From positions 22,289 to 86,288 of the forward strand of contig CAVEOA010000002.1 of the NCBI GenBank assembly GCA_963617205.1: a stretch of 64,000 bases of DNA, read 5' to 3'. Source of the DNA: Alloprevotella sp. Its GTDB lineage: Bacteria; Bacillota; Clostridia; Christensenellales; Aristaeellaceae. The position numbers and the translations under genes were made by a program. How positions within the stretch are numbered: the stretch's first letter is position 1; each line of letters begins with the position of its first letter. Shown here piece by piece: positions 3,832 through 19,818 of this stretch. The notes beneath the pieces were generated by a model. The model was not told the origin of the DNA and did no database searches. It worked only from the letters and a program-made list of their open reading frames with translations.

Positions 3832-4269
3832 TTACTGGCAGGGATCCTCTATGCCTTCAATGCTTTCCAGCTCAAGCCGAATCAGCTGATAGCCATGATC
3901 CTCATAGATTCTCAGCACGCCGACCGCGCGCACATAGGCTTCCGCCTCCGGATAGACGGCGTCGTCTGTCAGCCAGACCACTTCCATCCCCTCGCGCATC
4001 AAGCCGTCATCGCAGCAGCTTTCATGCCAGTGGTAGACGTAATAGTAGCTGTCGCGCTCCAGCTCGGGCGCGTCGCCGACATAGAGATACCCTTCAATGA
4101 GCACCGTTTGCCCAAGAAGCGATATGTGTTTGGTGTAGAATTCCTCCAGACAGTCGTGAAAATCCTCACAGCCGGTAATGCAGAACGCGGGCTCCTCTGC
4201 CATGCAGACGCCTTCGCAGGCAAGCGCAGCCGCCAGCAGAAGAATCATCAGCCTGATGAAGCGCTTCAA
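3832..4269 (-). CDS. Small secreted Cys-rich protein, unknown family
   Basis: Signal peptide MKRFIRLMILLLAAALA. There are 8 Cys in 145 aa (CEGVC, FCITGC, HDC, HESCCDDG, DPCQ). The start overlaps the upstream stop by 4 nt. No family recognised. Confidence 0.65.
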   Translation of the reverse strand: MKRFIRLMILLLAAALACEGVCMAEEPAFCITGCEDFHDCLEEFYTKHISLLGQTVLIEGYLYVGDAPELERDSYYYVYHWHESCCDDGLMREGMEVVWLTDDAVYPEAEAYVRAVGVLRIYEDHGYQLIRLELESIEGIEDPCQ

Positions 4270-4790
4270 TTTCGATTCCTTCCTTCGTCAATGTACGGCG
4301 TCTGCCTGCCTTCTCCGGAAAGAAGAAGGGTCAGGAAGCTGTTCTTGATCTCCACTGAACCGCACAGATAGCTTTCGCCGATAATCAGCGTCGGAACAAG
4401 CTGACGTTCCTCGGGAATGCCCTTGCGTTCATAGTATGCCTGAATGATGGTGCCCTCGTCCGGATTCGATTTATTCAGCGCAACGAGCCTGATTTTGCTT
4501 TTGCTGCCATCCGCCAGCGTGATTTCCTCCGGCAGCCCGGCGATGATCATATCCGCGCGTTCCGAGCAATACCTGCAGGTCGGGCGATAGAAGTAGTAAA
4601 CCAGCGAATCGCCGGCATCGACGTCCGCATCAATGCCTGTATTGCTTTTGGGATGATAATCCTCCGTCTCCTCCTCGGCAGGGGCTGAACCCATGAAGGC
4701 ATTCAGTCCCTGCTCCGCAAATGCATTCGCCGTCAGGAGGAGCGCAAGCAGCATCACCAGCGCAATGCGCTTCCCTCGTCCCATCGTCAT
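4266..4790 (-). CDS. Secreted thioredoxin-fold protein with CxxC motif (thiol-disulfide oxidoreductase-like)
   Basis: Signal peptide RIALVMLLALLLTANAFA. CxxC sits in YYFYRPTCRYCSE and a cis-Pro-like VPTLIIG follows. ATG 4790 overlaps the upstream TGA (ATGA at 4787-4790). The ORF-track start at 4865 would overlap the upstream CDS. Confidence 0.7.
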   Translation of the reverse strand: MTMGRGKRIALVMLLALLLTANAFAEQGLNAFMGSAPAEEETEDYHPKSNTGIDADVDAGDSLVYYFYRPTCRYCSERADMIIAGLPEEITLADGSKSKIRLVALNKSNPDEGTIIQAYYERKGIPEERQLVPTLIIGESYLCGSVEIKNSFLTLLLSGEGRQTPYIDEGRNRN

Positions 4791-6406
4791 TGCACCCGAT
4801 AGCGGTACAGCACGCGTGTCTGCACCTGACTTCCTTCGAGCGGCGTGTCCTGCCAGGCAGACCAATCGCCGTTGACCGTACGCGTTTCAACCTGTCTCGT
4901 ATCGCTTTGGCCAATCCAGTTCGTCGACCAATCGCTCCAAGAACCCCAGCCCTGATAGATATACTGCGTTGTCTTCGTGCGGGAACGGTACATGGTCACC
5001 TGAGTGGTCTCCGTCTTCGTGGAGGATTTTTCATTATACCATGATGAGCCGTCCGGCGCCTTATACCAATAGCAGCCGCCTTTTGTCCCCACTCCTGTAT
5101 ATCTGGTCGTGGAGCTTCTGTATTTCCAGCCGATTACACTCGTCACCACAGAAGGTGACTGCGTCGTCACATCGATGCAGCTGTAATAGAGCATGCCGGG
5201 ATAGTCGCGATGATAGTATTCCCAGCGGGAATAGTTCCAAACCGTCACTTCCTTCTCAACGTTCTGTGTGGTCGTTTCAACCTCCAGCGTAGCAGAACCG
5301 TAAATCGGCGTTTCAGAATAACCAGACCACTCGCCGTACACTACTTGCGCGTACCAGCCGCTGCCGGTCTGGGTTTCCGCGCTCGTCTTGGTGACAAAAT
5401 CACGGTAGCGATACTCGGTGGTTGCGGTTCTGTTGCGGTACTGCGTCTTTATGTCCACAATCGTCACGCCATTCGGCACGGTTTCCACCCAGTCCGAATA
5501 TACGACAGGCTTCGGGGTCGGCGTTGCCGTAATCACAGGCTTCGGGGTCGGCGTTGCCGTAATCACAGGCTTCGGGGTCGGCGTTGCCGTAATCACAGGT
5601 GTCGGCGTTGCCGTAATCACAGGCTTCGCCGTGACCTTCGGCACGTAATAAACGGTCGGCTTCGGGGTTGCCGTCGGTTCAGGCGTTGGTGTAATCAAAC
5701 TATCGGCATATTCCTTTGTAACAATATCGTACATTACCTTTGCCGGCTCATATTCGCCCTTAATCTGTGCAAGAAGCCTAGCCGCATCCTCTAAATTACC
5801 CTCTCCATAGGCTTTCAGCGCATCGACATAAACATCTTCATTGCTCGCAGCAGGTTGCCGGCCAATCATTAAAGACGTCATTCTTTCACGCGCATCATGG
5901 AAATCGAAGCACCTGAGATACAGCTCCGTTGCCAAGTCGATGTCTTTGTTGGCCTCCGCTTTTCGTCCATTGATATAGTCTCTGATTGTCGATACGGGAA
6001 CGATGCTGATCTCTCCGTCATCGATATTGCAATTTTCTTTCATGTATGCGACAAGTCCGTCTTCCTTTGCCTCGAGGTAATTGACGAACTGCTTTTGCAG
6101 CTCCATCGCCCTTACATACATTTCAGCGGTTTCAAGATCATCCTTTTCAATAATATACTGTACGGCTGTGGAATACATGATCAGATAAGAGCTGTATCCC
6201 TTGTTTCCACACATTTTAAAATCCGCAATGATATTATTGATATCCAGCCCTGAGTTCTTGGGATTGCTCATGTAGAGATTCAGATTCTTGATGGTCGTCG
6301 CATAGTTGTTTTCCATTGTTGTCTCCGCAGAAATCGCCACCGCAGAAACGTTCAGGCAGCAAAGCAGGGTCACCGCCGCAAGCAGCACCGACAATATACG
6401 TTTCAT
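4787..6406 (-). CDS. Secreted protein: helical TPR-like N-domain, Pro/Thr-rich repeat linker, W/Y/T-rich beta C-domain
   Basis: Signal peptide MKRILSVLLAAVTLLCCLNVSAVA. The linker is PVITATPTPK repeated about 4 times. The C-terminal half has recurring YRYR and WSxW motifs (EYRYRDF, WGSWSDWSTNW, GDWSAWQDTP, LYRYRVQ). No family name recognised. Confidence 0.7.
   Translation of the reverse strand: MKRILSVLLAAVTLLCCLNVSAVAISAETTMENNYATTIKNLNLYMSNPKNSGLDINNIIADFKMCGNKGYSSYLIMYSTAVQYIIEKDDLETAEMYVRAMELQKQFVNYLEAKEDGLVAYMKENCNIDDGEISIVPVSTIRDYINGRKAEANKDIDLATELYLRCFDFHDARERMTSLMIGRQPAASNEDVYVDALKAYGEGNLEDAARLLAQIKGEYEPAKVMYDIVTKEYADSLITPTPEPTATPKPTVYYVPKVTAKPVITATPTPVITATPTPKPVITATPTPKPVITATPTPKPVVYSDWVETVPNGVTIVDIKTQYRNRTATTEYRYRDFVTKTSAETQTGSGWYAQVVYGEWSGYSETPIYGSATLEVETTTQNVEKEVTVWNYSRWEYYHRDYPGMLYYSCIDVTTQSPSVVTSVIGWKYRSSTTRYTGVGTKGGCYWYKAPDGSSWYNEKSSTKTETTQVTMYRSRTKTTQYIYQGWGSWSDWSTNWIGQSDTRQVETRTVNGDWSAWQDTPLEGSQVQTRVLYRYRVQ
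5505..5630. repeat. In-frame 30-bp tandem repeat (3 identical copies, one 24-bp variant, one partial copy)
   Basis: The unit acaggcttcggggtcggcgttgccgtaatc occurs at 5505, 5535 and 5565 with 100 percent identity. Copy 4 at 5595 lacks 6 bp. The array encodes the PKPVITATPT linker of the 4787-6406 protein. Confidence 0.95.
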
Positions 6407-6444: not shown

Positions 6445-8076
6445 TTATTGAATGGTTCCGTTCATGTTGAACAGCAGTCCCTTGGAAGAGTAAACCCGAA
6501 GCTCGTAGTTTTGTCCGCTCACCAGGCTTTCCTTTGCCTGATTCAGCACCTCATCCAGCCGCACGAAGAGCAGATTCTGCCCGAAAATGCCACAGCCGCC
6601 GTCTTTCGCCGTCATCGTGACGATAGCTGTCTTTGTTCCGCACAGGATTGCCACCTTGCAGCTATCGATGGGCTCCGGAAATCCGTTGGCGGCAGACAAA
6701 TGGAGATACACGCCCTGTCCGTTGCCTTGCAGCTGCGCGACCGGCAGATTGCTGCCAGAGAGCATCCGCGTCAGCAAAGATTCCTGCATCAGCTTTTCAT
6801 GCTGGTCCGCGCCGTCATAGCCGCAATCCTTTGGATACCAGAAGAGCAGCCCTGTCATCTGTCCGTAATCCGTCGGGTCCTTTTCGAGCGTCAGCATGGC
6901 GGTTGAAGCCGCCTGTACGGTTTGATGCTGGTGAATCACACCGACAGCCGCCGCTGCAACGAGGACAACGACCATGACGATGGTGAGCAGCGTCCTTCTT
7001 TTCTTCCGTTTTTCCTCTTCGTTTTGCCTTCGCACGATTTCGTCCAGGTCATCGGTGATGCTGGCGTTCCGAGCCGCTGCCTGTGCATCCTCTGTCGCAG
7101 GCGGCTCTATCCTTTGTTCCGGCTGTTCGGGAATGACGCTCTCATCCTCATCCGGCCTATTCACCTTGCCTGCAAGCGAATCCGTCTGCGTTTCCGTTAC
7201 GCTCTCCCTTTGCTGATAGCGCCATTCTGGCGACGGATTTGCCTGTATTTTCTCTAATTCCTCAATAACCTCCCTGATGTTTTCCGGCCTGTCCTCCGGA
7301 TCTTCCGCCGTCATCTGCGCAGCAAACCGCCGCAGCGAGCTGCTCGTACCGTCCTGCTGCCCTTCAAGCAGCCGCTGAATCGTGCGTCCAAGGGCGTAGA
7401 TGTCTGTTTTCGGGCTCATCGTCCCGGAACGTCTCTCCGGCGCCTCGTAATCAGGCGTACCGCCCTGCCGCTGTCCATCTGTTTCCACCAGAAACGCTGA
7501 TACGCCGAAATCGCCGAGCTTGTAGATATGATCCCGCAGCCAGAAGATATTATCCGGCTTCACATCGCCGTGGATAATGGGCTTCGGCTGATGATAATGG
7601 CAGGTCTCCAGCGCCTTCGCGACGCACAGCGCAATCTGGATAATCCTGTCCTCGTTCATCGGCGTATCGGAAAGCACATTCTTGAGCGGCGTCAGCTTTT
7701 CCTCGCGGATCATCAGCATTGCGCCGGGTCTTCCCTCTGCCTTCACCTCTTCAAAGTCAAGGCAGTTCAGGATGTACGCCTCGCCCTGCAGCTGCTGCAT
7801 GATTCTGATTTCATCGCGGCACTGGGCAACCATTCTTTTGTATTTCTGCTCGATCGCGTCCGCCGTCAGACCGATGCTCTTCAGGTACTTCACATCATCC
7901 GTCTCGGGCATGACACAGATGACCTTGAGCGCCGATACGGTTTTTCCCGTCTCCGTTTCTCTTGCAATCTGGTAGACGACGCTCTTTCTTCCGCTTCCCA
8001 GAATGCTCTCAATCTGCCACGTCCGCAGCATTTCGGATTGCATCACGCACGCTCTGATCTGTGTCTCTTCCATCAT
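6445..8076 (-). CDS. Hanks-type Ser/Thr protein kinase, single-pass membrane protein with about 160-aa extracytoplasmic domain
   Basis: All catalytic motifs are present: G-loop LGSGRKSVVY, Lys in VSALKV, catalytic loop IIHGDVKPDNIF, LGDFGVS, GTPDYEAPE and DPEDRP. A TM segment LLTIVMVVVLVAAAAVGVI follows a charged linker. ATG 8076 overlaps the upstream stop (ATGA). Confidence 0.85.
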   Translation of the reverse strand: MMEETQIRACVMQSEMLRTWQIESILGSGRKSVVYQIARETETGKTVSALKVICVMPETDDVKYLKSIGLTADAIEQKYKRMVAQCRDEIRIMQQLQGEAYILNCLDFEEVKAEGRPGAMLMIREEKLTPLKNVLSDTPMNEDRIIQIALCVAKALETCHYHQPKPIIHGDVKPDNIFWLRDHIYKLGDFGVSAFLVETDGQRQGGTPDYEAPERRSGTMSPKTDIYALGRTIQRLLEGQQDGTSSSLRRFAAQMTAEDPEDRPENIREVIEELEKIQANPSPEWRYQQRESVTETQTDSLAGKVNRPDEDESVIPEQPEQRIEPPATEDAQAAARNASITDDLDEIVRRQNEEEKRKKRRTLLTIVMVVVLVAAAAVGVIHQHQTVQAASTAMLTLEKDPTDYGQMTGLLFWYPKDCGYDGADQHEKLMQESLLTRMLSGSNLPVAQLQGNGQGVYLHLSAANGFPEPIDSCKVAILCGTKTAIVTMTAKDGGCGIFGQNLLFVRLDEVLNQAKESLVSGQNYELRVYSSKGLLFNMNGTIQ

Positions 8077-9467
8077 TTCGTCACTCCTGAAGCCGAGAAG
8101 ATGATTTCACCGTCCAGCAGCAGCTCAACGCACCAGTCAGCCCCTGCCGGAATGCCTTGCAGCTGATCGAACAGGTCGGCCAGATAAATGGTCATCATCG
8201 TATCCGCGTTCGTGCCCGGCAGGAACCTGACCTGATCCATCGGCCATTGACCGGCAATCCGCGCCGTACCGCAGCCTTCCACGTGAAGATAGATTGCAGC
8301 CTCCTTGCCGTCAAATGCCTCGCGATTGATTTTTCCAACTGCCTTGACAATTTCCAGATAGTATCCGTACTCTGCCAGATTTTCCTCGGAAATATCAACC
8401 GCAAAATCGTTGACTCTCTGCGCCGAGCCGGCGTTGAACAGCGTCACCGCGGGAGAGCTGCCCTTGCTGCTGCCGCGGTCAATTTCGCTGACTGCCCTGC
8501 TGTAGCTCGTCTTCCTGACGCGGAACATGCGCACATTGACCGCTTCCTCTGCGCCGATGTACGTTTCGTTCGTGTCTGCCCTGTCCACGGAGATGGCGTT
8601 GCACTCGCTCTGCGCCAGCTGCCTTGCATCGTACACGCGAATGTAATACGTGCTTCCCTGCCACAAGCCGCTGACGGAAAACGACACGTCCGCATCCGTT
8701 GTCTGAACGCTGTAGAGCGCGCAGCCATTTTCGTCAGGCGTCCATGCAACTGTTTCGCCCTTTGTAACTTCCACCGCATCTCCGCTTACATCCGGCGCTT
8801 CCGCGAAGGTGCTGACCGTGATGCGGTAATCATTGATGTGCTGCTGATTCTCCCACGCAATTTCGATGGATGACCCATCGCCGCTCTGTTTTTTCGCCGT
8901 AAAGCTCAGGACAACCGACTGCAGGGCAGCGGCAGCCTTGTCCAGTTCCTTCTGTTCCTTCTGAAGCTTCCACAGCACATCCAGCTGCTCCGACGCCATG
9001 CCGGACAGGATGGTGTACTCCCGTGCTTCCTTCAAGTCGTTTTCGGCGTTCGTCAGGTCGCCTGATGCAAGCGCCTCGCTGCCCTGCACGTACTTGATGT
9101 AGTAGACAATGTCGGGGAATTTGCTTGACGAGCAGCGCTGAAAATGCTCCGCCGCATCCGCGTACTCCTCATCCCAGAAGCACAGCCACCCCTGCGCATA
9201 ATGATAGTATTCCGCCGCATCCTTGTAGCTGCCGTACACATTTTCCGCGTAGTTCGCAACCACGTTTGAGAAGGATTTGCGCGCCTGCACCATGTTGCCT
9301 GCGGCTTCATAGGTCTTTCCGCGATTGTACTCGGCGTACATGGCCTCAAGCTTTGATGCCAGCGAATAATCATCGACGCCCGCTGCCGTTTCAGCCATGC
9401 CTGTCGAACATGCACACAGCACCAATACAATCAGCAAGAACCACGCAATCGCATTTTTCCGTTTCAT
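8073..9467 (-). CDS. Putative lipoprotein with TPR-like helical N-half and FN3/Ig-like beta-rich C-half
   Basis: Signal with a probable lipobox, LIVLVLCACSTG. The helical region has Y/A-rich TPR-like repeats (AAEYYHYAQGW, AAEHFQRC). An FN3-like stretch follows (SIEIAWEN...YRITVS...STYYIRVYD). Confidence 0.65.
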   Translation of the reverse strand: MKRKNAIAWFLLIVLVLCACSTGMAETAAGVDDYSLASKLEAMYAEYNRGKTYEAAGNMVQARKSFSNVVANYAENVYGSYKDAAEYYHYAQGWLCFWDEEYADAAEHFQRCSSSKFPDIVYYIKYVQGSEALASGDLTNAENDLKEAREYTILSGMASEQLDVLWKLQKEQKELDKAAAALQSVVLSFTAKKQSGDGSSIEIAWENQQHINDYRITVSTFAEAPDVSGDAVEVTKGETVAWTPDENGCALYSVQTTDADVSFSVSGLWQGSTYYIRVYDARQLAQSECNAISVDRADTNETYIGAEEAVNVRMFRVRKTSYSRAVSEIDRGSSKGSSPAVTLFNAGSAQRVNDFAVDISEENLAEYGYYLEIVKAVGKINREAFDGKEAAIYLHVEGCGTARIAGQWPMDQVRFLPGTNADTMMTIYLADLFDQLQGIPAGADWCVELLLDGEIIFSASGVTK

Positions 9468-9508: not shown

Positions 9509-9841
9509 TTAATCCAGCTCGTTGCTCTCTTCCGGCTTGCTTTCCGTCGGCTTTTCCGTCAGCATCTTCTGCTGTGCAGCGAGCACAAACTGGCTGGTCA
9601 CCGAGAATGTCCTGCCTTCCGGTCCCGTGTAACCCTTGAATAGGACCTCGCTGATGTTCTCCGTGTCAAACGGGCGAACCGTTTCGTCATCCTTTTCGCC
9701 CAGCGGATAGAACACGCCGACGTAATCAAAGCAATGCTCCTGAATTTTCAGGCCGTAGCCAACCACAGCGAAGCAATACTTCTTGTTCTCCTCAAGGCGC
9801 ACAATGCTCCCGATGGGAAGCATGTTTTCAGCTGTCAGCAC
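9509..9841 (-). CDS. DUF4176-family protein (T7SSb-associated accessory protein), copy 2
   Basis: Family-typical N-terminus LPIGSIVRLEENKK...DYVGVFYPLGE...ISEVLFKGY. It has a long tail ending ESNELD. Confidence 0.75.
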   Translation of the reverse strand: MLTAENMLPIGSIVRLEENKKYCFAVVGYGLKIQEHCFDYVGVFYPLGEKDDETVRPFDTENISEVLFKGYTGPEGRTFSVTSQFVLAAQQKMLTEKPTESKPEESNELD

Positions 9842-9859: not shown

Positions 9860-10648
9860 TCAATAACCAAAGATGGTGGTTTTAACGCCATTTGCAACAT
9901 AGTTAAAGCCTTTTCCGACCCATCCGCCGACTGTCCCGCCAGCCTGAGTTACCCAGGTGGTTGCGCTGTCCGGGATGATGTCGATTCCAAAGCCGTTCAA
10001 AACCGCATCAACCGTACCGATTACAGATCCTGCAGCGCTTGAACCGATACCAGTGCCAAGCGTTTCTGAGAGCGTCGTCTTGCCGCTGCGGTAATCTCCG
10101 ACAGCTTCGTTACGAACGCTCGCTATCGCATCGTCGGCATGCGTGTAAGAATGCGCCATATTTCCCGCGTTGCTGAGCATTGGAATTCCTGTAACGTCAG
10201 CTGCAATCACGCCTCCGGCACCAAACGCCGCCTCAAGCACGTCATTCGTGGTACCATTTGCAATGGCGTCAATCAGTTCGGACGCATAGCCGCCTGTGAC
10301 CACATCCAGAAGCGCCGTGACCGCCCCTGCTACGCCGCCATCCTGAAACGCTTCAATCACCTTCACGGCGGAGTCGTAAATTTCCTTTACCTTCAGCAGC
10401 TTATCCAGATACTTCGACAGCTTTTCAAACTTCTCAAAAATCGCCTTGACCGTGGCGCTGATTTTGCCCAGAACGGTTCCGCTCGTACTGCTTGCAAGGT
10501 CGCCGCCTGCTTCCGGATGCAGCTTCAGATAGCTCTCCGAGTTCTGTGCGCTTGTGAGTGCGTCCTTCGTGGTGTTCTTTGCACTTGTCGTCTGGTCAAT
10601 CAACGTCTGCAATGCTTGCGCATTATAGTCGGTTGTTACCGCCGTCAT
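9860..10648 (-). CDS. Putative T7SS substrate/effector: helical N-domain plus Gly/Ala/Ser-rich glycine-zipper C-domain
   Basis: 262 aa with no signal peptide. The helical N-terminal part is about 110 aa. The C-terminal part has GTGIGSSAAGSVIG and GGTVGGWVGKG (GxxxGxxxG). It lies directly after three small helical genes, as in LXG-type effector modules. Confidence 0.55.
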   Translation of the reverse strand: MTAVTTDYNAQALQTLIDQTTSAKNTTKDALTSAQNSESYLKLHPEAGGDLASSTSGTVLGKISATVKAIFEKFEKLSKYLDKLLKVKEIYDSAVKVIEAFQDGGVAGAVTALLDVVTGGYASELIDAIANGTTNDVLEAAFGAGGVIAADVTGIPMLSNAGNMAHSYTHADDAIASVRNEAVGDYRSGKTTLSETLGTGIGSSAAGSVIGTVDAVLNGFGIDIIPDSATTWVTQAGGTVGGWVGKGFNYVANGVKTTIFGY

Positions 10649-10671: not shown

Positions 10672-10941
10672 TTAATCAAGCGTGTTCAAACGCCTTTCCG
10701 AAATCTGCTTCTCATTGTCGATGTTTTTCAGCAGCGTCTGCAGCTTCTGCAATGCCTTTTCAACCGCGTCGCTCTTCTCCGTGCACGCCTTATAGAGGTT
10801 TTGCGTATTGGCGCTCGCAATGCCCTGCTTCAAAAAGGCAAGCGCCTGCGAAAGATTGCCAATCTGCGTCTGCATGCTCGTCACAATCGACTGGCTGTTG
10901 TTTACCGCCGTCTCAAAGGCCGACAAATCAACATATGCCAT
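10672..10941 (-). CDS. Small alpha-helical T7SS-associated protein (Lap/WXG100-superfamily-like), 89 aa
   Basis: Helix-turn-helix-sized, no Trp, ends RRLNTLD. An SD-bearing 23-nt gap precedes the downstream gene. Confidence 0.55.
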   Translation of the reverse strand: MAYVDLSAFETAVNNSQSIVTSMQTQIGNLSQALAFLKQGIASANTQNLYKACTEKSDAVEKALQKLQTLLKNIDNEKQISERRLNTLD

Positions 10942-10965: not shown

Positions 10966-11268
10966 TTAAGACCCTTTAAGCACCTTCATTGCGTCCGTTT
11001 CCTTTTTGCTGAGTTCTCCGGAAAGCGTTCCGACCGCCGTTGCATACGCCTTCACCGCATCCGCAAGGCTCTGAATCTGCTCGCTGAGCTGCATGTTGTT
11101 GCTGGCGATGAAGTCCGACTTGTACTTGCTGTCCCAGGTGCTCAGCATCGCGTCAAGCTCCGTCTTAAGCTTCGCGCCGTTCTTCTTCAAGGCGTCCGAA
11201 ACGTCGTTCAGCGTGGTCAGCGCCTTGCTTACCTGCTGGCTGTCATACGAGTAGTTGGTATTTGCCAT
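10966..11268 (-). CDS. WXG100-like protein (EsxA-like, W-x-S variant), 100 aa
   Basis: The central motif LSTWDSKYKSDF aligns with the W-x-G...F pattern of EsxA-type proteins, with G replaced by S. ATG 11268 with gagaggggg upstream is preferred over the ORF-track GTG at 11274. Confidence 0.6.
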   Translation of the reverse strand: MANTNYSYDSQQVSKALTTLNDVSDALKKNGAKLKTELDAMLSTWDSKYKSDFIASNNMQLSEQIQSLADAVKAYATAVGTLSGELSKKETDAMKVLKGS

Positions 11269-11288
11269 ATGCACACGCCCCCTCTCTT

Positions 11289-11531
11289 TTATCCAAGCGC
11301 CTTAATCTTCTTCGTGATGGTTCCGCTTGCCGACTTCGCGCTGTTCTCCGCCTCATTCGCGTCCTTGATGCTGTCATCCAGAATTTTCTGAAGCTCATTA
11401 ACCGCCATGACGCCAATGGTCGACGTGTTCACGCTGGACAGCGCCTTGGAAGCCTCCTGCATCTTCAGTTCCATGTCTTCCAGATAGCGCTTTGCCGATG
11501 CCATGTCCGCGCTGTTATACTTGTCGCTCAT
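11289..11531 (-). CDS. Small alpha-helical T7SS-associated protein (Lap-like), 80 aa
   Basis: All-helical composition with no Trp or Cys. An N-terminal YNSAD (YxxxD pattern) is present. It is tightly packed, 12-14 nt from its neighbours. Confidence 0.5.
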   Translation of the reverse strand: MSDKYNSADMASAKRYLEDMELKMQEASKALSSVNTSTIGVMAVNELQKILDDSIKDANEAENSAKSASGTITKKIKALG

Positions 11532-11543: not shown

Positions 11544-11861
11544 TTAGTCAAGCTCGTTCGATTCGTGCATCTTCGGGGCAAATTCGCCCGCTGCGGCTCT
11601 GCGCTCCGCATCAGCCATCGCCTTCGTCATCCCCTGCTGAAACTCGGGGTACTTCTCGTACTGGTAGCCGTTGAACACCACCTGTTCGATGGCTTCCTCG
11701 TCAAAGAGGACGATGGGCATATCACCCAATCCCAGCGGATACGGAACAGAAGCGTACTTCCGGATGTTTCCGGCTGCTCCCACACGCAGATACCCCGTAA
11801 CCATGCGCTTCTCGCGATGATCCTTGATTGTCACAACGCTCCCGATTGGCAGAAACTCCAT
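11544..11861 (-). CDS. DUF4176-family protein, copy 1
   Basis: MEFLPIGSVVTIKDHREKRMV...VPYPLGL...IEQVVFNGYQ. The tail ends HESNELD. Confidence 0.75.
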   Translation of the reverse strand: MEFLPIGSVVTIKDHREKRMVTGYLRVGAAGNIRKYASVPYPLGLGDMPIVLFDEEAIEQVVFNGYQYEKYPEFQQGMTKAMADAERRAAAGEFAPKMHESNELD

Positions 11862-12129: not shown

Positions 12130-15100
12130 TCACTCCTTCGGCAGATAAACCTTGATGGGGAAACGGTTTTCCGGAATGACGAAGCCTTCGCCGGGCTTCA
12201 TGTATTCATTCGTCCGGTCATACGTCAGCGAGCAGTTCCACGGGTCAAAGCTGGACAGCGTATTGCCCGTTGTGATGATGTGGCAGTTCTGCGCAAACGC
12301 CCTGACCGAATCCGGCAGTGAATTTGCATTGATCTGCGTGGAAATCAGAACGCGGATGCTGTACTTGCTTCCGAGGCGCACTGCGGTCAGAAGCTGCTTC
12401 GACAGCTGCTGGTCCACCTTTTCCCCGTCAAACCACCGGTCCACGTCATCCAGCACAATGCACAGCGGCTTCATGGTGCCTGCAATCGCGCGCCAGTTGT
12501 TTTCGTCCTCCCAGCCTGAAACGGCGCGCTGCGCACGCTTTTGCTCGCCGAAGCGGTCGTCCATATCGGACGTAAAGCCGCGCTGCCGGTCAACCGGCGT
12601 ATTGCTTGACAGGAAGGCTACATGACCGTTGACGCCCTTCCACCTTGCCTGGTCGGCTTCGCTGGCAATCACGAAAATATCTCCGTCATCCCCTGCGCAA
12701 AGCTTCGCCAGCGACATCAGCAGCGACGTCTTGCCGGTTTCGCGTTTGCCTGCAACAAGCACCGTCGGCTTTTCGTAGAAGTCCAGGAAAACAGGCTTCA
12801 GCGATTCATGCCGGAATGCGACCGGCACCTCTGCCTTTTTCTCCTTCACGCCATACGCGGCAAGCACCTGCGCACCAAATTCTGCCGGAACACGCGGCAT
12901 TTTGAGCACCGGCGCACTGCACGGCGGAAGGGCTTCACCGTATTCATGCAGCTTTTCCGCACGCTTCCGATCCTCTGCCAAGCCAAACGCAAGCCCCGTC
13001 TGAAATTCGAGACAGCCCTGCTTGCTGTTCATCACGCCGCGACCGGGCAGATCTGCCGGAATCGCCTGTATGCTGCTCGTGCGGACATTCAGCGCATCCG
13101 CATATTCCGACGCACTGCCCATGCCGAGCGGAATGACCTGCATCGCCTCCAGCAGCCGCCGGTTGATTTCGCCCATAGCATTCGCCGTCACGATGAAATA
13201 GATGCCGCGTCCCGAGGCCGTTTTAATCAGGTTTTCCACCTTTTCCTGCTCGTTGTCGTTCAGCAGCTCATACCATTGCGCAAAGCGATCCACCGCCACA
13301 ATCAGCGCAGGCATAACAGGCTCGCCGTCCTCCTCGCATGCGCGGTTGTAGCTTGCAAAGCTGTCCGTCTTTTTCTCCGCGAATGTCGCGTCGCGTGCGG
13401 TCATCAGCTCCTCCAGCCGATAATATGCGGCACGCTCCTCACGGCTTTCCCACTTGGTCAGCACATCGCAGACGTTGGGAATTGTCTCAATGGACTTCAG
13501 CGCCGTGCCCGAGAAGCTGAGCACCATCATTTGCACCTGCGCCGGCGAATAGCGTCGGCTGACTGCATAGGCGAGCGTCTGCAGGAACATCGTCTTGCCG
13601 CTCTGGCTGTGCCCGATAATCGCCATGTTCCGCAGCGCAGACACATTCAGCGATGCCGTCAGATACCGCTGATTCGCCACATCATCCAGCATACCGATGA
13701 CGGCGCTGATGCCGTCCTCCGTGTTTTCCTCCGCCGATGGCAGCGCAGTCAGGTCAATCACATTCGGCAACTCCGGCAGCCACAGCTTTCCAGCTCCCTG
13801 ATAGCCATACGTTTCTGCCGTCCTGTTGATTTCATCCAACACGGCGCTCATCTGGCTCTTTGCTTTTTTCGTTGGTGCATTTGCCGCAGCAACCATCTTT
13901 TTCCTGCGCCCGAGCGAATCCATCAATGCAGGCTTTGCGGCGGGATCCCCCTGCTCCGGCTCATAGGCGGCGCCGCAATACGCCGTCTGAATCTGTTCAA
14001 ACAGCTCATCATTGCCCACCTGTACGAAGCCGCGTCCGTTTCCCTTGATGAACGCCGCATCCGGTCGGTGCAGCATATCGTTCGAGTCCTCGCGTGTCCG
14101 CACCTGCAGGCAGATATGGAAGCGGCTGTTGCTCCAGATTTCAGGACCCACCTTGTTTGACGGGCGCTGCGTTGCCAGCAGAAGATGCAAGCCGACCGAG
14201 CGTCCCACGCGTGCCGTGCTGATCAGCTCGCTCATGAAATCCGGCAGCTCGTCCATCAGCTCCGAGAACTCGTCAATCACAATCAGGATATGGGACAGCT
14301 TCCTGCTGTCCGCAAGCGGATTCACATAGCGAATGTACGCATCGATATTATCGACATCGTACCTTTTGAATAATCTCTCGCGCCGTTTCACCTCGCCGCG
14401 AAGCGAATACAGCGCCCGGTTGATGCTCCGCTTTCCCTGCAGGTTGTCTACAAAGCCGATGCAGTGCGGCATGTTTCTGAAGTTGTTGAAGGTGCCGCCG
14501 CCCTTGTAGTCAATCAGAATAAACTGCATCTGCTCCGGCGAATAGTTCAGCGCGAGCGAAAGCAGCAGCGTCTGCAGCAGCACGCTCTTGCCCGAGCCGG
14601 TTGTACCCGCCATGATGCCGTGCGGTCCATGCTGCTTGTCCGACAGGTCAAGCGGGAAAATGCGCTCGCCAGCCATCTTTCCCAGATAGGCGATGATGTC
14701 CCTGCTCGTGCTGTTCTGCTCCCACCGAAGGCGGATTCCCAGCTGCTCTGTCTCGCGAACGCCATACATCTCCAGGAATGTCACGCGATCCGGAATTTTC
14801 CGATTGCCGATTAAACCCGTTTCGCGGCAGCCGTTGAGCGTATCGATGGTTTGCCAGAATTGACTCTCCTCGCAGGATTCCGGCGTCACGCTCTGCGTTG
14901 TTTTCTCTGCGTAATTGTAGAGCTTTTTCTCCCGCGCATTGTATACAACCTTGCATTCCTTGGGAAGCTCCTCTTCCTTTTCCGCGCAAACGCAAATCGA
15001 AAAGCCGGCGTTCGAGGCAATGATGTTGGAAAACAGCACATGCCGCCACAGATAGGTGCTGTCCTCGAAAATGACGATGTAGTGCGGCAGCATGGCGCTC

Positions 15101-16647
15101 TTTTCGTTGTCCTTTTCCAGCCGGAGCATCAGCACATCGTTGAGCTGCGACAGGATTTCCATCGCATCCGCGTAATTGTCCGAAATCAGCTGACCCTCGC
15201 TGCCGTCATACAGCTGCATGTGCGGCAGCGCACGCAGGAAACGCCACTTCTCGCCGTTGCCCGGCTTTGCGATGAGGGCAATCCGCACATCCTCGGGCGC
15301 ATGCATGACGGACAGCTGTAAAATCAGCGTTTCAATCAGCGAAGATGCTTCCTCTGAGACGATGCCGAACAGCTTGTCATTGAGCAAATCAACCGTAATC
15401 GGCGCATCGTGCAGCATACTGAATTTTTCCTGCAGGCGGTACGGCGCATTCTTTTCGTCCTCAGGCACCTCGCCCATCTTCAATTTCGGCACGGAAATGC
15501 TGTACGGCAGCCTGACCTGTCCTCTCCCTATGCGTATTTTGAGAAACGTCTCGCTGTTCGGCGTTCTTTCCCATACGGCGGAGCTCAACTGCGCCGCATC
15601 GCTGCAGCATTGCTGCCATGCCGGATAATATTTTTCCAGCGTGTCCAGAATCTCCTCAACGCCCTTGTTGATTTCCTTTTCTGTTCGCCCAAGGCGCTTG
15701 ATATAATCCGCCATCGCTTCCTTGAACTGCTTTTTTCTCATGTGCCTGCTGTAGCAATAGTTCATCAGCGACCAGCCGACCGCCAGCACAGAGGAGGACA
15801 CCATCATCACCGTGCCATAGCCGCGATAGCTCGACCCGCTCAGCATGCTGCCCAGCAGCATCGGCAAGCTCATCGTCAGCGCCGGACCCATGCTCAGAAG
15901 AAGTGGCTGCGTCCTGTTTTCCTCAAGCACCGGCGTCGCTTCAATCTCGTACTTTTTCTCTTCTATTTTCGGCATGAAGCGCGGCGGTCGGGCGATATCC
16001 CGATACAGGGGAGCCGCCTTCGCCCGGAACGTCACGATATGCGGTATGCTCGCTGCCTGCAACGCAACGTGTCCGCCGCCGATGCCGCTGACGCCAATCA
16101 CGTTGCCGCCAAGATACACAATCTGCAATCCGCTTGCGAAGGCAATCAAATCGCCCGTGCGGATTTCCTTTTCTTCATTGCGGATGAACCATCCATTGAT
16201 AAACGAACCGTTCTTGGATGTATCGGCATAGCTTGCATGGTCTCCTGACACCTTCAGGACGCCATGATGATTAGAGAGGCGCTTGTCCGGCGAGCAAACG
16301 CCGCAGTCCTCATGACGTCCGATTTGCAGCGTCTCTCCGGTCAGGACATACTTGCCGAACCGGACGTCCTCCTGCAAAATTTCGGAGCAGTAAATGCCGA
16401 TTATCGCGTCCTCATGCTTCAGAATCAGGCTCATCTCATGATGCAGACACCGTTCCCGTGTATCCTCGCCGTCATTCCATGTCATTTCCTCAGGCTTGAC
16501 CGCGTACCACTGATGATCCATGGCAACAAACGTCACCTGATATTTCTCATAGGACGGCGCTGCCGCAGTGATGGCGTCCTTCTCGACGTCCGGCAGACAG
16601 AATATTTTTCCTCGTCCCCTGCTGTACATAACGATTCGTAGCATCAT
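12130..16647 (-). CDS. essC: EssC/YukB-type FtsK-SpoIIIE T7SS ATPase with N-terminal FHA domains
   Basis: 1505 aa. FHA-like region LQIGRHEDCGV...NHHGVLKV...DTSKNGSFINGW. Two TM segments are present. There are three P-loops: GTTGSGKSVLLQT, GHSQSGKTMFLQT and GKRETGKTSLLMS. Confidence 0.9.
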   Translation of the reverse strand: MMLRIVMYSRGRGKIFCLPDVEKDAITAAAPSYEKYQVTFVAMDHQWYAVKPEEMTWNDGEDTRERCLHHEMSLILKHEDAIIGIYCSEILQEDVRFGKYVLTGETLQIGRHEDCGVCSPDKRLSNHHGVLKVSGDHASYADTSKNGSFINGWFIRNEEKEIRTGDLIAFASGLQIVYLGGNVIGVSGIGGGHVALQAASIPHIVTFRAKAAPLYRDIARPPRFMPKIEEKKYEIEATPVLEENRTQPLLLSMGPALTMSLPMLLGSMLSGSSYRGYGTVMMVSSSVLAVGWSLMNYCYSRHMRKKQFKEAMADYIKRLGRTEKEINKGVEEILDTLEKYYPAWQQCCSDAAQLSSAVWERTPNSETFLKIRIGRGQVRLPYSISVPKLKMGEVPEDEKNAPYRLQEKFSMLHDAPITVDLLNDKLFGIVSEEASSLIETLILQLSVMHAPEDVRIALIAKPGNGEKWRFLRALPHMQLYDGSEGQLISDNYADAMEILSQLNDVLMLRLEKDNEKSAMLPHYIVIFEDSTYLWRHVLFSNIIASNAGFSICVCAEKEEELPKECKVVYNAREKKLYNYAEKTTQSVTPESCEESQFWQTIDTLNGCRETGLIGNRKIPDRVTFLEMYGVRETEQLGIRLRWEQNSTSRDIIAYLGKMAGERIFPLDLSDKQHGPHGIMAGTTGSGKSVLLQTLLLSLALNYSPEQMQFILIDYKGGGTFNNFRNMPHCIGFVDNLQGKRSINRALYSLRGEVKRRERLFKRYDVDNIDAYIRYVNPLADSRKLSHILIVIDEFSELMDELPDFMSELISTARVGRSVGLHLLLATQRPSNKVGPEIWSNSRFHICLQVRTREDSNDMLHRPDAAFIKGNGRGFVQVGNDELFEQIQTAYCGAAYEPEQGDPAAKPALMDSLGRRKKMVAAANAPTKKAKSQMSAVLDEINRTAETYGYQGAGKLWLPELPNVIDLTALPSAEENTEDGISAVIGMLDDVANQRYLTASLNVSALRNMAIIGHSQSGKTMFLQTLAYAVSRRYSPAQVQMMVLSFSGTALKSIETIPNVCDVLTKWESREERAAYYRLEELMTARDATFAEKKTDSFASYNRACEEDGEPVMPALIVAVDRFAQWYELLNDNEQEKVENLIKTASGRGIYFIVTANAMGEINRRLLEAMQVIPLGMGSASEYADALNVRTSSIQAIPADLPGRGVMNSKQGCLEFQTGLAFGLAEDRKRAEKLHEYGEALPPCSAPVLKMPRVPAEFGAQVLAAYGVKEKKAEVPVAFRHESLKPVFLDFYEKPTVLVAGKRETGKTSLLMSLAKLCAGDDGDIFVIASEADQARWKGVNGHVAFLSSNTPVDRQRGFTSDMDDRFGEQKRAQRAVSGWEDENNWRAIAGTMKPLCIVLDDVDRWFDGEKVDQQLSKQLLTAVRLGSKYSIRVLISTQINANSLPDSVRAFAQNCHIITTGNTLSSFDPWNCSLTYDRTNEYMKPGEGFVIPENRFPIKVYLPKE

Positions 16648-16795: not shown

Positions 16796-16911
16796 CAGAC
16801 CGGCACAAAAAAGCTTTTTGCCGCCGCAGATGGCGCAAGAGGCACATTCAGCGGCAATGCCGAATTATACGGTGTTGCCCTGTATAGAATCCCGATGATT
16901 CTGAAATCCCA

Positions 16912-19818
16912 TCACGATTCATGAACATACGCAAGCATCGGTTCAAGCTCTTCCCAAAGGACAAAACCGCTGTCCCGCATGGCTTTATATTCCTCAAGAA
17001 CGGCATCGATGTACTCCTGTGCCTTGTCCTTCTTGTTCATGGCATCGTATGCCATCGCAATCTGGAAATGAATCGTCACGCGCCCGACCTCATCCGGCTG
17101 TTCGCACTCATTCATCCGTTTCAGGCACTCCTCAAGTATCTGCAGCGACTGCTTGTATTTTCCTGCTTCGTAATACGCATAGCCGCGTTGATCCAGTGCG
17201 TGAAGCGTCAGCCAGGACGTACGGTCGAGGTTCCTTATTTTGCACAGCAGCTGGTAATTGACCTGCAGCGCCTTCTGCGGCTGTTTTGCGCGCCGGTAGG
17301 CCTGTGCCAGATGAAGCAGCTCGTCCTTGTCGTTTTTCAATCTGTCATCCGTATTCTTCTCGTATCCTTCGATATAACGCTGCGCATACTTTTCTACCCT
17401 TTGCCACTGTCTGCCGACCGCGCACGCTTCCATCAGGTAAGCGCAGGAAATCCAGCTGTCATTTAGTTCCGAATCGTCTCCCATTTCTTTTATTATTTTT
17501 TCGATAAGCCGTTCAAATTTGTCAAGTTGCTCCTCCTGCGGAATGGCCGTGCCGAACATAACGCTGTAAAAAGCCTGTAGTTGAAGCTGGAAACAAAACG
17601 ACTTTTGCTCAGGGTCCATCTTCTCCGCCTGTGCCAGAAGCTCGCTGCACTTCACTACATCGCCGCTGTTCATGAGCACATTCCGCGCTTCTTCGATCAG
17701 CATAAACCCGCGTGGAATCGAGTTCGGGCATTCTTCCAGAATACGGCTGATCAGCGCATTTGTTTTTTTATTCCCAATGCTGTTGCCCATCTGAATGAAC
17801 ACAAACACACCCATTGCGGCAAGCGGATTTGCAAAGTCAATTTTCTCTGCTTCCTTCAGCAGCGCATCCGCATCGTTTTCTTCTCCGGAACTTTCATATT
17901 TTGCCATTCTGATCGCAATTTCAAAGCAATGCGCAATAAAACGTGTTTCCTTATTTGAACTTTTCCCGCAAAACTGCACCATTCTTTTCTGAATCTGGCG
18001 ATAGCTGTGCATCACAGCATACACCATCGCGCCAAGCGCAATTTCCTCCGGCACTTCCATCCCGTTCGCCACCAGAAAGGAAACAATGCTTGCACCGGCG
18101 TACGCCTCCTGCTTATAGCAGAACAGCTCGTCCCCATGCTGTGCGAACAGCTCCCGAATGCGTTTTTCCAGCTTCGGATAATCCTGAAGCCTGCCGAATT
18201 CCGTGCGCATCGCCTCGGCGATAACCGGCTGCATCGAATAGCCATGCCGATTCAGCTCCAGCCAGCCATTCAGATAGCCGCTGTAGAGCATCGATGGCAC
18301 CTTTTGGGCATCGGGCTCCGCGTCCAGCAGGAGATTTTCGATGCTTCTTGGCGGCCAGCTCACAGCATCCAGCGCTGAAAACAGCACCAGCAGCCTGCGC
18401 ATCTGGGGCGTCACGACGGTCGTCGCAAAGACCCTCCTGAGCTTCTCGATAAAGCTCTCGCTTTCGCCGCGATGAATCAGTTGCAGATTCTGATAGCCGT
18501 TCGCGTCAATTTCTTCGTTCAGCGCAGCGACTGTCAGCGAACGCATTTTCAATGCCTTGCCCAGCAGAATCACTGCCAGCGGATGCCCCTGCATGCGGTG
18601 GTGCAGCCGCTCAAATTCCTCTCTGCTGTCCGACAACGGGAAGCCGCTGCTGACCTCCAGCAGCTTTCTCGTTTCATCCACGCCCAAAGACGCCATAGGA
18701 AATTCTGAAAAGCCCTCCAGCTCTCGCTGACGGGACGTCACCAGCACATCGCAGCCGAAGCACGCCACCTTTTCCCATTGCTCCGGATTTCGGTCAATCC
18801 TTGCATTGTCAATCACCAGCAGCGTCCTGCCGCTGTACGGCTTGTCCAGTAGCTCTCCGACGCTGCGAAGGATCTTCTCCGGCTCCTCCTCTCGAAGCTC
18901 CGAAAACGCCTTTTGAAATGCCGCAGCCAAATCTCCCTGATCCTGCGCAAACGCCAGTCGGCTGTATCGACCCAGCTCTCCGCAGCGCACCAGCACCTGC
19001 CGGACAAGCTCCGTTTTTCCCATGCCGCCGGCGCCCGAAACGAGCACCTTTCCTCTTTTTTCCAGACGCGCATACAGCAAATCGACCACGTTTTCCGGAC
19101 AGGGCACGTAAGCCTCCTTCGCAAGCGCCTGCTTACAAGCCTCGCACTCATGCGACGTCAGCACCACCGGCACAAAGCGTCCGAACGTGACATGGCGGTA
19201 TTTCATGTACAGCTGGCTGGCTGAGAACTCATCGCGTTTCCGCAAAAGCGCAATCCGCTTGCTGTCCATATGGCTGCCAAGGAAAGCATAAACCGTCAGC
19301 CATGCCATCTGCACGCTGCAGAAAAAGCCCTGACTGGGGTAGTCCATCTCAAACGCTTCATTCGCCTCATCGCGCAGGGTTACCAGATGCGCCTGAATTT
19401 CGGACGTCATCGCGCTGTCGCCTGCTATGCACTGATCTTCAAACGCGCACAGCGACTGCATAAACAGGAACCAGTCCGGCTCCTGCCGATTCAGCAGCTC
19501 CAGCCATGCGACCGTCAGATGCATAAACTTCGTGCTGTCAAGCTCCTTGGAGAAGGTCTCGTAAAGCGGCGACATCACGCCTGCGGTGCCGCTGCGGTTC
19601 ATGATATTGCTCAGGCTTCGCGAGCGCTTCTCCTTCGTGCTCTCCAGCATGGCCAGCGCGTCATCATCCAGAATCGTCATCAGCAGCTCACGCCAGAAGT
19701 GAATCAGCGTCGTCTTCGCAAGCCGGATTGCGGCGGTTGATTTGTCCCCGTCTATGCCGTTGCTAAGCCAACGATAAATCTCACGCGGTGTCAGCAGTCG
19801 ATTGCCTTCTGTTTTCAT
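16912..19818 (-). CDS. STAND NTPase: unassigned about 250-aa N-domain, NB-ARC (AP-ATPase) module, C-terminal TPR array
   Basis: Walker A VSGAGGMGKTEL, Walker B LLVIDNA, RNBS-B-like DVLVTSR and GLPL-like QGHPLAVILLG. The C-terminus has multiple TPR-like repeats (YYEAGKYKQSLQILEECL, IAMAYDAMNKKDKAQEYID). Confidence 0.8.
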   Translation of the reverse strand: MKTEGNRLLTPREIYRWLSNGIDGDKSTAAIRLAKTTLIHFWRELLMTILDDDALAMLESTKEKRSRSLSNIMNRSGTAGVMSPLYETFSKELDSTKFMHLTVAWLELLNRQEPDWFLFMQSLCAFEDQCIAGDSAMTSEIQAHLVTLRDEANEAFEMDYPSQGFFCSVQMAWLTVYAFLGSHMDSKRIALLRKRDEFSASQLYMKYRHVTFGRFVPVVLTSHECEACKQALAKEAYVPCPENVVDLLYARLEKRGKVLVSGAGGMGKTELVRQVLVRCGELGRYSRLAFAQDQGDLAAAFQKAFSELREEEPEKILRSVGELLDKPYSGRTLLVIDNARIDRNPEQWEKVACFGCDVLVTSRQRELEGFSEFPMASLGVDETRKLLEVSSGFPLSDSREEFERLHHRMQGHPLAVILLGKALKMRSLTVAALNEEIDANGYQNLQLIHRGESESFIEKLRRVFATTVVTPQMRRLLVLFSALDAVSWPPRSIENLLLDAEPDAQKVPSMLYSGYLNGWLELNRHGYSMQPVIAEAMRTEFGRLQDYPKLEKRIRELFAQHGDELFCYKQEAYAGASIVSFLVANGMEVPEEIALGAMVYAVMHSYRQIQKRMVQFCGKSSNKETRFIAHCFEIAIRMAKYESSGEENDADALLKEAEKIDFANPLAAMGVFVFIQMGNSIGNKKTNALISRILEECPNSIPRGFMLIEEARNVLMNSGDVVKCSELLAQAEKMDPEQKSFCFQLQLQAFYSVMFGTAIPQEEQLDKFERLIEKIIKEMGDDSELNDSWISCAYLMEACAVGRQWQRVEKYAQRYIEGYEKNTDDRLKNDKDELLHLAQAYRRAKQPQKALQVNYQLLCKIRNLDRTSWLTLHALDQRGYAYYEAGKYKQSLQILEECLKRMNECEQPDEVGRVTIHFQIAMAYDAMNKKDKAQEYIDAVLEEYKAMRDSGFVLWEELEPMLAYVHES

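Follow-up and report, generated by a model that had tools for sequence, protein, structure and literature searches.

A probable kinase-type variant among type VII secretion systems, with no detectable EssB, EssA or EsaA, in uncultured Clostridia

Introduction

Whether the EssC motor of type VII secretion systems (T7SSs) can be served by partners other than EssB, EssA and EsaA is the question raised by a compact locus in Alloprevotella sp. (GTDB lineage Bacteria; Bacillota; Clostridia; Christensenellales; Aristaeellaceae; NCBI GenBank assembly GCA_963617205.1). The locus lies on the minus strand of a stretch of 64,000 nucleotides (contig CAVEOA010000002.1, positions 22,289 to 86,288 of the forward strand), referred to here as the window; all coordinates are those of the window unless another locus is named. 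It encodes EssC together with a YukD-type protein, a membrane Ser/Thr kinase, exported proteins and a module of candidate cargo. We consider it to be a self-contained kinase-type T7SS variant, distinct from canonical T7SSb and from the published T7SSc-j, with a probability of about 0.7.

For a long time the T7SS of the Bacillota meant the EssA/EssB/EsaA/EssC machine; from 2024 onwards the motor has been known with other partners, often kinases. To our knowledge there has been no experimental work on any of these variants, and RefSeq genomes were the source of those described. T7SSc-j were defined from the EssC phylogeny and from gene neighbourhoods (Garrett, Higginson & Palmer 2024, Microlife, PMC11217815). 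A preliminary description of the DNA studied here, made from the sequence without database searches, had taken the locus for an atypical type VIIb system and had suggested that it might be a minimal or differently built Clostridia-type T7SS.

Results

Operon structure and core genes

Thirteen co-directional open reading frames (3832-16647, minus strand) run from essC to a gene for a Cys-rich protein. In that order they are separated by 6, 19, 12, 14, 24, 23, 18, 41, -4, 38, -4 and -4 nucleotides (nt), the three 4-nt overlaps having the sequences ATGA, ATGA and TTGA, and GGAGG-type ribosome-binding sites precede most of the starts. A consensus scan of 3832-16647 returned no terminator-like site on the minus strand, and the end of the operon is marked as follows:

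3757-3800, minus strand: intrinsic terminator, AAAGCCCGAT...ATCGGGCUUUUU; -25.9 kcal/mol, z = -4.6 against shuffled sequences, followed by U5

The preliminary description had reported thirteen minus-strand genes packed with gaps of 6-41 nt or 4-nt overlaps, one convincing terminator and a single unit. All of its coordinates match, its terminator is the only convincing one, and a synteny check found the block kept as a unit in four further lineages. The five lineages referred to below are those of the window and L004, of L086, of L002, of L084 and of L087. Three genes are central to the argument:

12130..16647, minus strand: EssC/TsxC motor ATPase, 1505 amino acids (aa); TIGR03928 791.9 bits (cutoff 778.4), FHA 38.8 bits, FtsK_SpoIIIE 194 bits
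11881..12123, minus strand: YukD/EsaB-type ubiquitin-like protein (TsxB), 80 aa; PF08817 31.1 bits (cutoff 27); orthologues in all five lineages
6445..8076, minus strand: membrane Hanks-type Ser/Thr kinase, 543 aa; Pkinase 89.5 bits (cutoff 31.7)

EssC, scored here with the NCBI Firmicutes EssC model TIGR03928, has one N-terminal Pfam FHA domain, two weak transmembrane (TM) helices at about residues 254-307 and Walker A sites at residues 681, 1012 and 1300. The YukD-type protein has a conserved C-terminus (...LC), which across the lineages always reads L-x-L-C. These two proteins, and the two DUF4176 proteins described below, had been recognised from the sequence alone, and all four score above the TIGR03928 or Pfam cutoffs.

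Search for EssB, EssA and EsaA

The 14 proteins encoded by the block and by the STAND NTPase gene upstream of it were searched against Pfam and NCBIfam (E <= 0.1), and none matched EssB/YukC, EssA or EsaA/YueB. The block encodes no polytopic protein; beyond signal peptides, TM helices are found in EssC and the kinase only, and with intergenic gaps of <=41 nt there is no space for small genes missed by the annotation. The rest of the 64-kb window contains neither a second essC nor any canonical or other T7SS part.

The kinase is the protein in which a cryptic EssB might be looked for. It consists of a cytoplasmic kinase domain, a linker, one TM helix (359-385) and an extracytoplasmic beta-sandwich (396-543). 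Both sequence and fold searches returned active kinases only. The model of its ectodomain (396-543; pLDDT 88.9, pTM 0.85) is a beta-sandwich whose PDB neighbours are generic beta-sandwiches only (UNC119/PDE6delta, TM-score about 0.45), and EssB/YukC is not among the top 50 PDB fold matches listed for it. A cryptic EssB was ruled out on these two grounds, the kinase profiles and the ectodomain fold; the kinase is an analogue of EssB and not a detectable orthologue.

These results bear on several claims of the preliminary description. It had seen nothing like EsaA/YueB, EssA or EssB/YukC in the locus, as the profile search of all 14 proteins also found. It had envisaged that unassigned proteins might be remote homologues of these parts, or that canonical copies might sit beside a second essC; no such relative was detected, and no such copies are present within the window. 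The kinase, two exported proteins, thioredoxin-like protein and Cys-rich protein that it saw in place of the usual membrane parts are all present, the TPR and fn3 matches of the two exported proteins being weak. Its statement that only EssC and EsaB are recognisable as core parts was right in naming both, but a candidate degenerate WXG100 protein would add a weak third canonical part. The type VIIb label had to be given up: T7SSb is defined by EsaA, EssA and EssB, none of which was detected in the locus, and by current nomenclature this is a non-b variant.

Conservation of the gene set

Related loci were compared with that of the window:

L004 (CAVIHU010000014.1): EssC 95% identical; same lineage as the window; whole block
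L086: EssC 78% identical; all 14 genes from the STAND gene to the Cys-rich gene, in another chromosomal context, between cobalamin genes and tex
L002: EssC 63% identical; STAND gene through the 539-type gene, then the end of the contig
L084: EssC 50% identical; same order from EssC to the kinase, the 539-type gene upstream of EssC instead, STAND, thioredoxin and Cys-rich genes absent
L087: EssC about 30% identical; EssC-YukD-DUF4176-79-94-91-262-DUF4176-447-kinase-506 (numbers are protein lengths), with a divergent LytTR regulator and histidine kinase upstream

The conserved core comprises 11 genes, EssC through the 539-type exported gene, in the same order in all five lineages, except that in L084 the last of them stands upstream of EssC. 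The system is rare in public data. The exact kinase was found on one other contig only and its full-length relatives are few (two among the representative genomes of 185,579 species), while 241 million JGI metagenome records, scanned with the 464-aa protein family described below, yielded one partial locus.

In L084 the block lies between a resolvase gene and genes for a MobA/MobL relaxase and a large serine recombinase of the DUF4368 type (436-4276 and 15345-19080 of that locus), and the whole T7SS is there carried by a putative mobilisable element. This context would suit an FtsK-like ATPase that serves DNA transfer by mobile elements. The kinase and STAND genes might likewise be taken for an adjacent anti-phage defence module, as the kinase domain matches defence-kinase models of PADLOC such as mad6 and PD-T4-6 and the STAND protein weakly matches mad8. 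The PADLOC matches were rejected as evidence of defence, since they span only the generic kinase and P-loop cores. A three-ATPase EssC accompanied by YukD, a WXG100-like protein and DUF4176 proteins is a T7SS signature; the flanks fetched for the other four lineages contain no mobile-element genes; and the kinase gene overlaps the gene before it by 4 nt and keeps its place down to about 30% EssC identity. Transfer or defence is hardly probable at all as an explanation of the locus.

The kinase, the FHA domain and a candidate phospho-site

The catalytic elements of the kinase (Gly-rich loop, Lys51 in beta3, HGDVKPDN, DFG and GTPxYxAPE) are invariant in six relatives; among the seven kinases compared, those of L084 and L087 also keep them, with DFD or DFS for DFG and the Asp retained. 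The kinase is of the non-RD type (HGD). Its gene overlaps the preceding gene, for a 464-aa exported protein, by 4 nt (ATGA), an arrangement of translational coupling.

The FHA domain of EssC has intact phosphothreonine-binding motifs (IGR, SNHH and KNGSFING). The GR, S(T)xxH and NG motifs are kept in three lineages, and L002 and L084 conserve them all, L084 with TQHH. In the EssC of T7SSb the conservation of GR, SxxH and NG is 0%, 0% and 21%, whereas in the kinase-containing subtypes d, e and j it is 90-100% (Garrett Table S1, PMC11217815). The FHA domain of T7SSb EssC is thus almost wholly without two phosphothreonine motifs, while the one described here keeps GR, SNHH and NG, as in d, e and j, which places the locus functionally with the kinase-type variants.

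The linker of the kinase is poorly conserved except for T-x-T-D (TQTD, residues 296-299), which is invariant and occurs once per protein in 7/7 kinases. FHA domains of the Rad53-FHA1 type prefer pT-x-x-D. Because of this preference, and because TxTD is the only invariant motif of the linker, the motif is a specific candidate for the place where the EssC FHA domain docks, and we infer that it may be the ligand of that domain.

One could also suppose that the locus is an accessory EssC-plus-effector island of an ordinary T7SSb, with EssB, EssA and EsaA encoded elsewhere in the genome and the kinase a mere regulator. T7SSb organisms commonly have second essC variant modules and DUF4176/LXG islands, the EssC described here scores just above the Firmicutes EssC cutoff, and the search for canonical parts covered the 64-kb window. 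This explanation is nevertheless quite improbable. The same gene set recurs in chromosomal surroundings that differ, and in one case on a mobile element, which argues for self-sufficiency of the system; the FHA domain has kept the motifs that T7SSb EssC proteins have largely lost; the kinase gene is translationally coupled within the operon, with conserved catalytic and TxTD motifs; and no canonical part was found within the window.

Phylogenetic placement

The five EssC proteins are monophyletic in 200/200 neighbour-joining bootstraps of full-length sequences. When the N-terminal ~600 aa of ten T7SSa-j reference ATPases were added, the clade was still recovered in 200/200 bootstraps, with 16-23% identity to the references. 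In this approximate tree it stood apart from all of the references; in none of the 200 bootstraps was TsdC, TseC or TsjC its nearest partner, and its identity to these three is 18-21%. The TsiC reference groups with a sister clade (L085 and relatives) that has PP2C, PASTA kinases and numerous WXG100 genes. One member, L088 (1443-9969 of that locus), encodes an EssC without a Pfam FHA match, YukD, several WXG100 proteins and a 475-aa Mbeg1-like (lipase-family) protein, which might be a 'reverse' lipase-type T7 substrate; no kinase is present within its 12.9-kb contig.

Four kinds of part, TsxA-like, TsxB, TsxC (with a phosphothreonine-binding FHA domain) and TsxD-like, are common to the locus and to T7SSe/j, and the core gene lists of the narrow-range subtypes are uncertain, as Garrett et al. 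themselves note (PMC11217815). The locus might accordingly be placed within T7SSd, T7SSe or T7SSj as a member whose accessory genes have been lost or relocated. We find this unlikely, as the PP2C TsxF, TsxJ, TsxI and TsxH/K are present in none of the five lineages, the extra genes that are fixed here are listed as core for no published subtype, and the EssC clade stood apart from TsdC, TseC and TsjC in the bootstraps given above.

Exported proteins and shared ectodomain modules

Two further genes of the conserved core encode exported proteins:

8073..9467, minus strand: exported 464-aa protein; signal peptide; TPR-like helical, fn3-like and C-terminal beta domains; TPR and fn3 matches weak, below cutoff
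4787..6406, minus strand: exported 539-aa protein; signal peptide; helical N-terminal domain, Pro/Thr-rich linker and Trp/Tyr-rich beta domain; TPR and fn3 matches weak, below cutoff

Neither has a C-terminal TM helix. A PDB sequence search with the 464-aa protein returned nothing, and direct BLASTP comparisons, of the 464-aa with the 539-aa protein and of the kinase ectodomain with the 464-aa protein, were equally negative. Long-form kinases (P0011, P0012, L084 and L087) have an extracytoplasmic fn3-like domain in addition to the beta-sandwich, and a profile of their ectodomains aligned by hhalign with the C-terminal two-thirds of the 464-aa family at a probability of 96.4% (E 1.2e-9, 221 columns). 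The score was 70.7 in our local control run and 73.5 in the tool's run, compared with at most 17.3 in 16 column-shuffled controls. The fn3-like and C-terminal beta domains of the 464-aa protein are homologous to the long-form kinase ectodomain; with the short-ectodomain kinase profile the value was only 17%, and the kinship is clear only via the long forms.

The N-terminal helical domains of the 539- and 464-aa families aligned at 95.7%. With the signal peptides removed this fell to 42.6% (E 2.5e-4), for which reason we regard the relationship of these domains as no more than probable. A 539-type relative is encoded in all five lineages (in L084 upstream of EssC). The Pro/Thr-rich linker of the 539-aa protein (about 5500-5700) is a tandem repeat of PVITATPTPK that varies between lineages in length and content, and in L084 and L087 an fn3-like insert takes its place. 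The shared domains lead us to suppose an extracytoplasmic assembly of the kinase ectodomain with the 464-aa protein and, probably, with the 539-aa protein as well.

Candidate cargo module

Between yukD and the gene for the 464-aa protein lie six genes:

11544..11861, minus strand: DUF4176 protein a, tail ...NELD; PF13780 62.6 bits (cutoff 25)
11289..11531, minus strand: 80-aa helical protein, candidate Lap-like partner with a conserved ...KIKALG end; no family match; position kept in five lineages
10966..11274, minus strand: degenerate WXG100 protein (EsxA/TsxA-like), 100-102 aa, start GTG 11274 or ATG 11268; WXG100/ESAT-6 below cutoff
10672..10941, minus strand: 89-aa helical protein, candidate Lap-like partner, tail ...NTLD; conserved in five lineages
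9860..10648, minus strand: 262-aa candidate substrate; helical N-terminal ~100 aa, C-terminal half rich in glycine and small residues; position kept in five lineages
9509..9841, minus strand: DUF4176 protein b, tail ...NELD; PF13780 61.6 bits (cutoff 25)

The preliminary description had noticed three small helical proteins and an effector-like gene. This arrangement stands (three 80-102-aa helical genes directly upstream of the 262-aa gene, with a DUF4176 gene adjoining), and one of the three is the candidate degenerate WXG100 protein. It scored 17.3 bits with PF06013 (cutoff 27.3) and 14.9 bits with TIGR03930 (cutoff 44.85), and its family profile found ESAT-6 and EsxA chains in the PDB weakly (E 0.03-0.1). 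At the position of the WXG motif four lineages have TWDS, and the orthologue of L087 has TWGG. The 89-aa family gave no WXG100 signal against the PDB. In each of the five lineages x-L-[D/E/T] forms the C-terminus of both DUF4176 proteins and of the 89-aa protein, and this tail may be a shared recognition signal for the motor.

The 262-aa protein has neither a TM helix nor a signal peptide, no Pfam match at E <= 0.1, LXG (PF04740) included, and no PDB sequence match. Its family is tiny: 11 relatives were found among 1.84 billion representative proteins, all of 245-331 aa except one 93-aa fragment. The C-terminal half contains 17% Gly, 10 small-xxx-small-xxx-small motifs and conserved NAG and IPDS, and is conserved between the lineages and not polymorphic. 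There is no candidate immunity gene beside it, the next genes being those of the second DUF4176 protein and the exported 464-aa protein. The protein is read here as a putative dedicated substrate rather than a polymorphic toxin, and its glycine-rich half suggests a membrane-active (glycine-zipper-like) function.

In T7SSb, DUF4176 proteins are chaperones that stabilise LXG effectors (PMC12482557), LXG pre-secretion complexes dock on EssB/YukC (bioRxiv 10.64898/2026.03.12.711312), and glycine-zipper LXG T7 effectors are known (PMC10434224). On these precedents the region 9509-11861 was read as an effector complex with its partners and chaperones.

Accessory and neighbouring genes

The genes outside the conserved core, and a candidate promoter, are:

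16912..19818, minus strand: 968-aa STAND NTPase; NB-ARC 30.3 bits (cutoff 23.5), C-terminal TPRs (TPR_12 33.7 bits), N-terminal ~240 aa with no assignment
4266..4790, minus strand: exported thioredoxin-fold protein, CxxC = CRYC; signal peptide; weak redoxin/TrbB matches; FYRPTC(R/K)YC and VPT conserved
3832..4269, minus strand: exported Cys-rich protein, 145 aa, conserved HESCCDDG; signal peptide; accessory
19841..19870, minus strand: sigma-70-like promoter candidate 5' of the STAND gene, TTGACA-18-TACAAT, 11/12 consensus positions (a consensus match alone)

EssC and the STAND gene are 264 nt apart, and a hairpin in this gap was rejected as no better than shuffled sequence. A STAND orthologue is encoded directly upstream of EssC in L086 (18-nt gap), L002 and L004 and is absent in L084 and L087, i.e. 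it occurs in 3/5 lineages; the STAND NTPase is an accessory or regulatory part of the unit. The thioredoxin-like and Cys-rich genes are found in the two closest lineages only (L003, L004 and L086) and are absent after the kinase in L084. The start of the former is most likely at 4790 (ATGA overlap) and not at 4865. Speculatively, its product could form disulfides in Cys-containing exported parts. By their distribution the STAND, thioredoxin-like and Cys-rich genes are predicted lineage-specific accessories.

Just 3' of the operon (1555-3557, minus strand) lie genes for a LytTR response regulator and a GHKL (AgrC-like) histidine kinase, and likewise in L004. LytTR/histidine-kinase pairs or a lone LytTR gene also adjoin the related and sister loci L087 (261-3627), L085 (1-2100) and L089 (4703-5197), and are absent from L086. 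A LytR-like protein, TsiN, is among the parts of T7SSi (Garrett et al., PMC11217815). These genes may be a recurrent quorum-sensing-type regulator of such T7SS variants. On the other side two genes (19864-22677, plus strand) diverge from the STAND gene, one for a multi-pass membrane protein that by eye is MBOAT/AlgI-DltB-like, the other for a 374-aa protein that has an N-terminal TM helix. Sugar metabolism, transporters and regulators make up the other 44 kb of the window, and Rfam gave no family at its gathering score anywhere in the window. An alpha-galactosidase encoded in the window has its closest named relatives, at no more than 63% identity, in MAGs of Clostridia, Eubacteriales and Aristaeellaceae, which assigns the organism to an uncultured Clostridia/Eubacteriales lineage and no more narrowly. 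Gene content and these relatives disagree with the label 'Bacteroidaceae bacterium' under which L004 is deposited in GenBank, so that this MAG has probably been mislabelled or mis-binned.

Discussion

Proposed mechanism

Our reading of the locus as a self-contained kinase-type T7SS suggests the following model. The kinase would take the topological place of the EssB pseudokinase and phosphorylate the TxTD threonine in its own cytoplasmic linker. The FHA domain of EssC would then dock on phospho-TxTD, so that phosphorylation switches the assembly or activation of the EssC/YukD motor. On the outer side, the kinase ectodomain and the two exported proteins would probably make up a complex for sensing a signal or bridging the wall, as a replacement for EsaA and EssA. 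The cargo would be an LXG-like pre-secretion complex composed of the 262-aa protein, the WXG100-like protein, two Lap-like partners and two DUF4176 chaperones.

Several points weigh against this reading. Every member of the group comes from uncultured metagenome-assembled genomes or metagenome contigs, and copies of EssB, EsaA, EssA or a PP2C phosphatase may be encoded in the genome beyond the 64-kb window that was searched. The placement among the reference ATPases is approximate, being based on N-terminal ~600 residues machine-read from Garrett Fig. S2 and on neighbour joining only. The WXG100 assignment is below the family cutoffs, the 262-aa protein lacks an LXG Pfam match, and the model of the full-length kinase is of low confidence (pLDDT 61.6). 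The locus contains no cognate phosphatase, which is unusual for a reversible switch, although the published T7SSd is also without one. Finally, three elements of the model are conjectural: that FHA pairs with TxTD, that the ectodomains form a complex and that the cargo acts on membranes.

A bolder version of the same reading would make this an eleventh T7SS architecture, one that is self-sufficient and moves horizontally. Only EssC and an active kinase would be embedded in the membrane, the motor FHA would read autophosphorylation of the kinase linker, and a domain-sharing exported assembly would replace EsaA and EssA. The 262-aa protein would be a non-polymorphic substrate, possibly a pore former acting on the envelope of the target or of the producer, rather than a toxin with an immunity partner. 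In this full form the proposal is tentative, and we think it rather doubtful that all of it will hold.

The value of the finding is that of a hypothesis generator. The locus extends the diversity of T7SS variants into uncultured Clostridia and offers a compact test case, with one motor, one ubiquitin-like protein, one active-type kinase, one TxTD phospho-site candidate and one candidate substrate with its chaperones. If the phospho-switch is true, it would be the most direct coupling of a sensor kinase to a T7SS motor yet proposed. The domain kinship of the kinase ectodomain and a co-transcribed exported protein is newly recognised, and the homology to the 464-aa protein suggests how the extracytoplasmic side might be organised without EsaA and EssA.

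Comparison with known systems

With the T7SSb of S. aureus (Ess) and B. subtilis (Yuk/Yue) the locus has several features in common: three P-loop domains and an N-terminal FHA region in EssC, the presence of EsaB/YukD, an effector module of the LXG, Lap and DUF4176 kind, a single-pass hub protein with a cytoplasmic kinase fold and, with scores below the family cutoffs, a small WXG100-like protein. It differs in having no EssB, EssA or EsaA and in a kinase fold that retains all catalytic residues; its WXG motif is degenerate (WDS), and its candidate effector is conserved in length and sequence and has no neighbouring immunity gene.

The glycine-zipper LXG effectors TelE and EsxX (PMC10434224, PMC12744356, PMC12482557) resemble the 262-aa protein in their helical N-terminal part, glycine-rich C-terminal part, helical partners encoded upstream and a DUF4176 gene directly downstream. 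Unlike them, the 262-aa protein lacks both an LXG match in Pfam and a neighbouring immunity gene; it is conserved in its C-terminal half, and its family is very small.

Coupling of an outside signal to the activation of secretion by a membrane kinase and an FHA reader is, in the available accounts, a feature of the type VI secretion system (T6SS) PpkA/Fha, of Agrobacterium TssL-Fha (both cited in PMC11217815) and of Esr-Esx of oral Actinomycetales (PMC13622651). In the locus described here, for which a like coupling is proposed, the FHA domain is fused to the motor ATPase, the proposed phospho-site is in the kinase linker and no phosphatase gene is present.

The closest likeness is to T7SSd, e and j. 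In T7SSc, d, e and j there are membrane Ser/Thr kinases whose active site is conserved and whose topology is that of the EssB pseudokinase, and the ATPase FHA domain keeps the GR/SxxH/NG motifs in T7SSd, e and j (PMC11217815). An FHA-competent EssC, an active single-pass kinase (N in, C out) in place of EssB, WXG100-type proteins (here below the family cutoffs) and the lack of EssA and EsaA are common to these three subtypes and the locus; a YukD-like protein is shared with T7SSe/j, and T7SSj also comes from Clostridia. The PP2C TsxF and the DUF6382-FHA protein TsxJ belong to T7SSe/j; no PP2C domain and no second FHA domain is encoded by the block or by any gene called in L002, L084, L086 and L087, and the ~1650-aa Ig-like TsxI (with a C-terminal TM helix) and the small TM proteins TsxH/TsxK of T7SSd/e/j have no counterpart in the locus. 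The kinase ectodomain is a beta-sandwich here, with or without an fn3-like domain, whereas it consists of TPRs in TsjD and is helical in TscD and TsdD. Conversely, none of the published subtypes lists as core the two DUF4176 genes, the gene for the 262-aa protein or those for the two exported proteins of 464 and 539 aa. The suggestion of a differently built Clostridia-type T7SS is thereby supported, but it is less novel than had been assumed, kinase-containing variants in Clostridia having been published (PMC11217815). Taken together, the design in which a kinase stands in for EssB is already on record, and the locus appears to be an undescribed member of that spectrum with a conserved gene set of its own.

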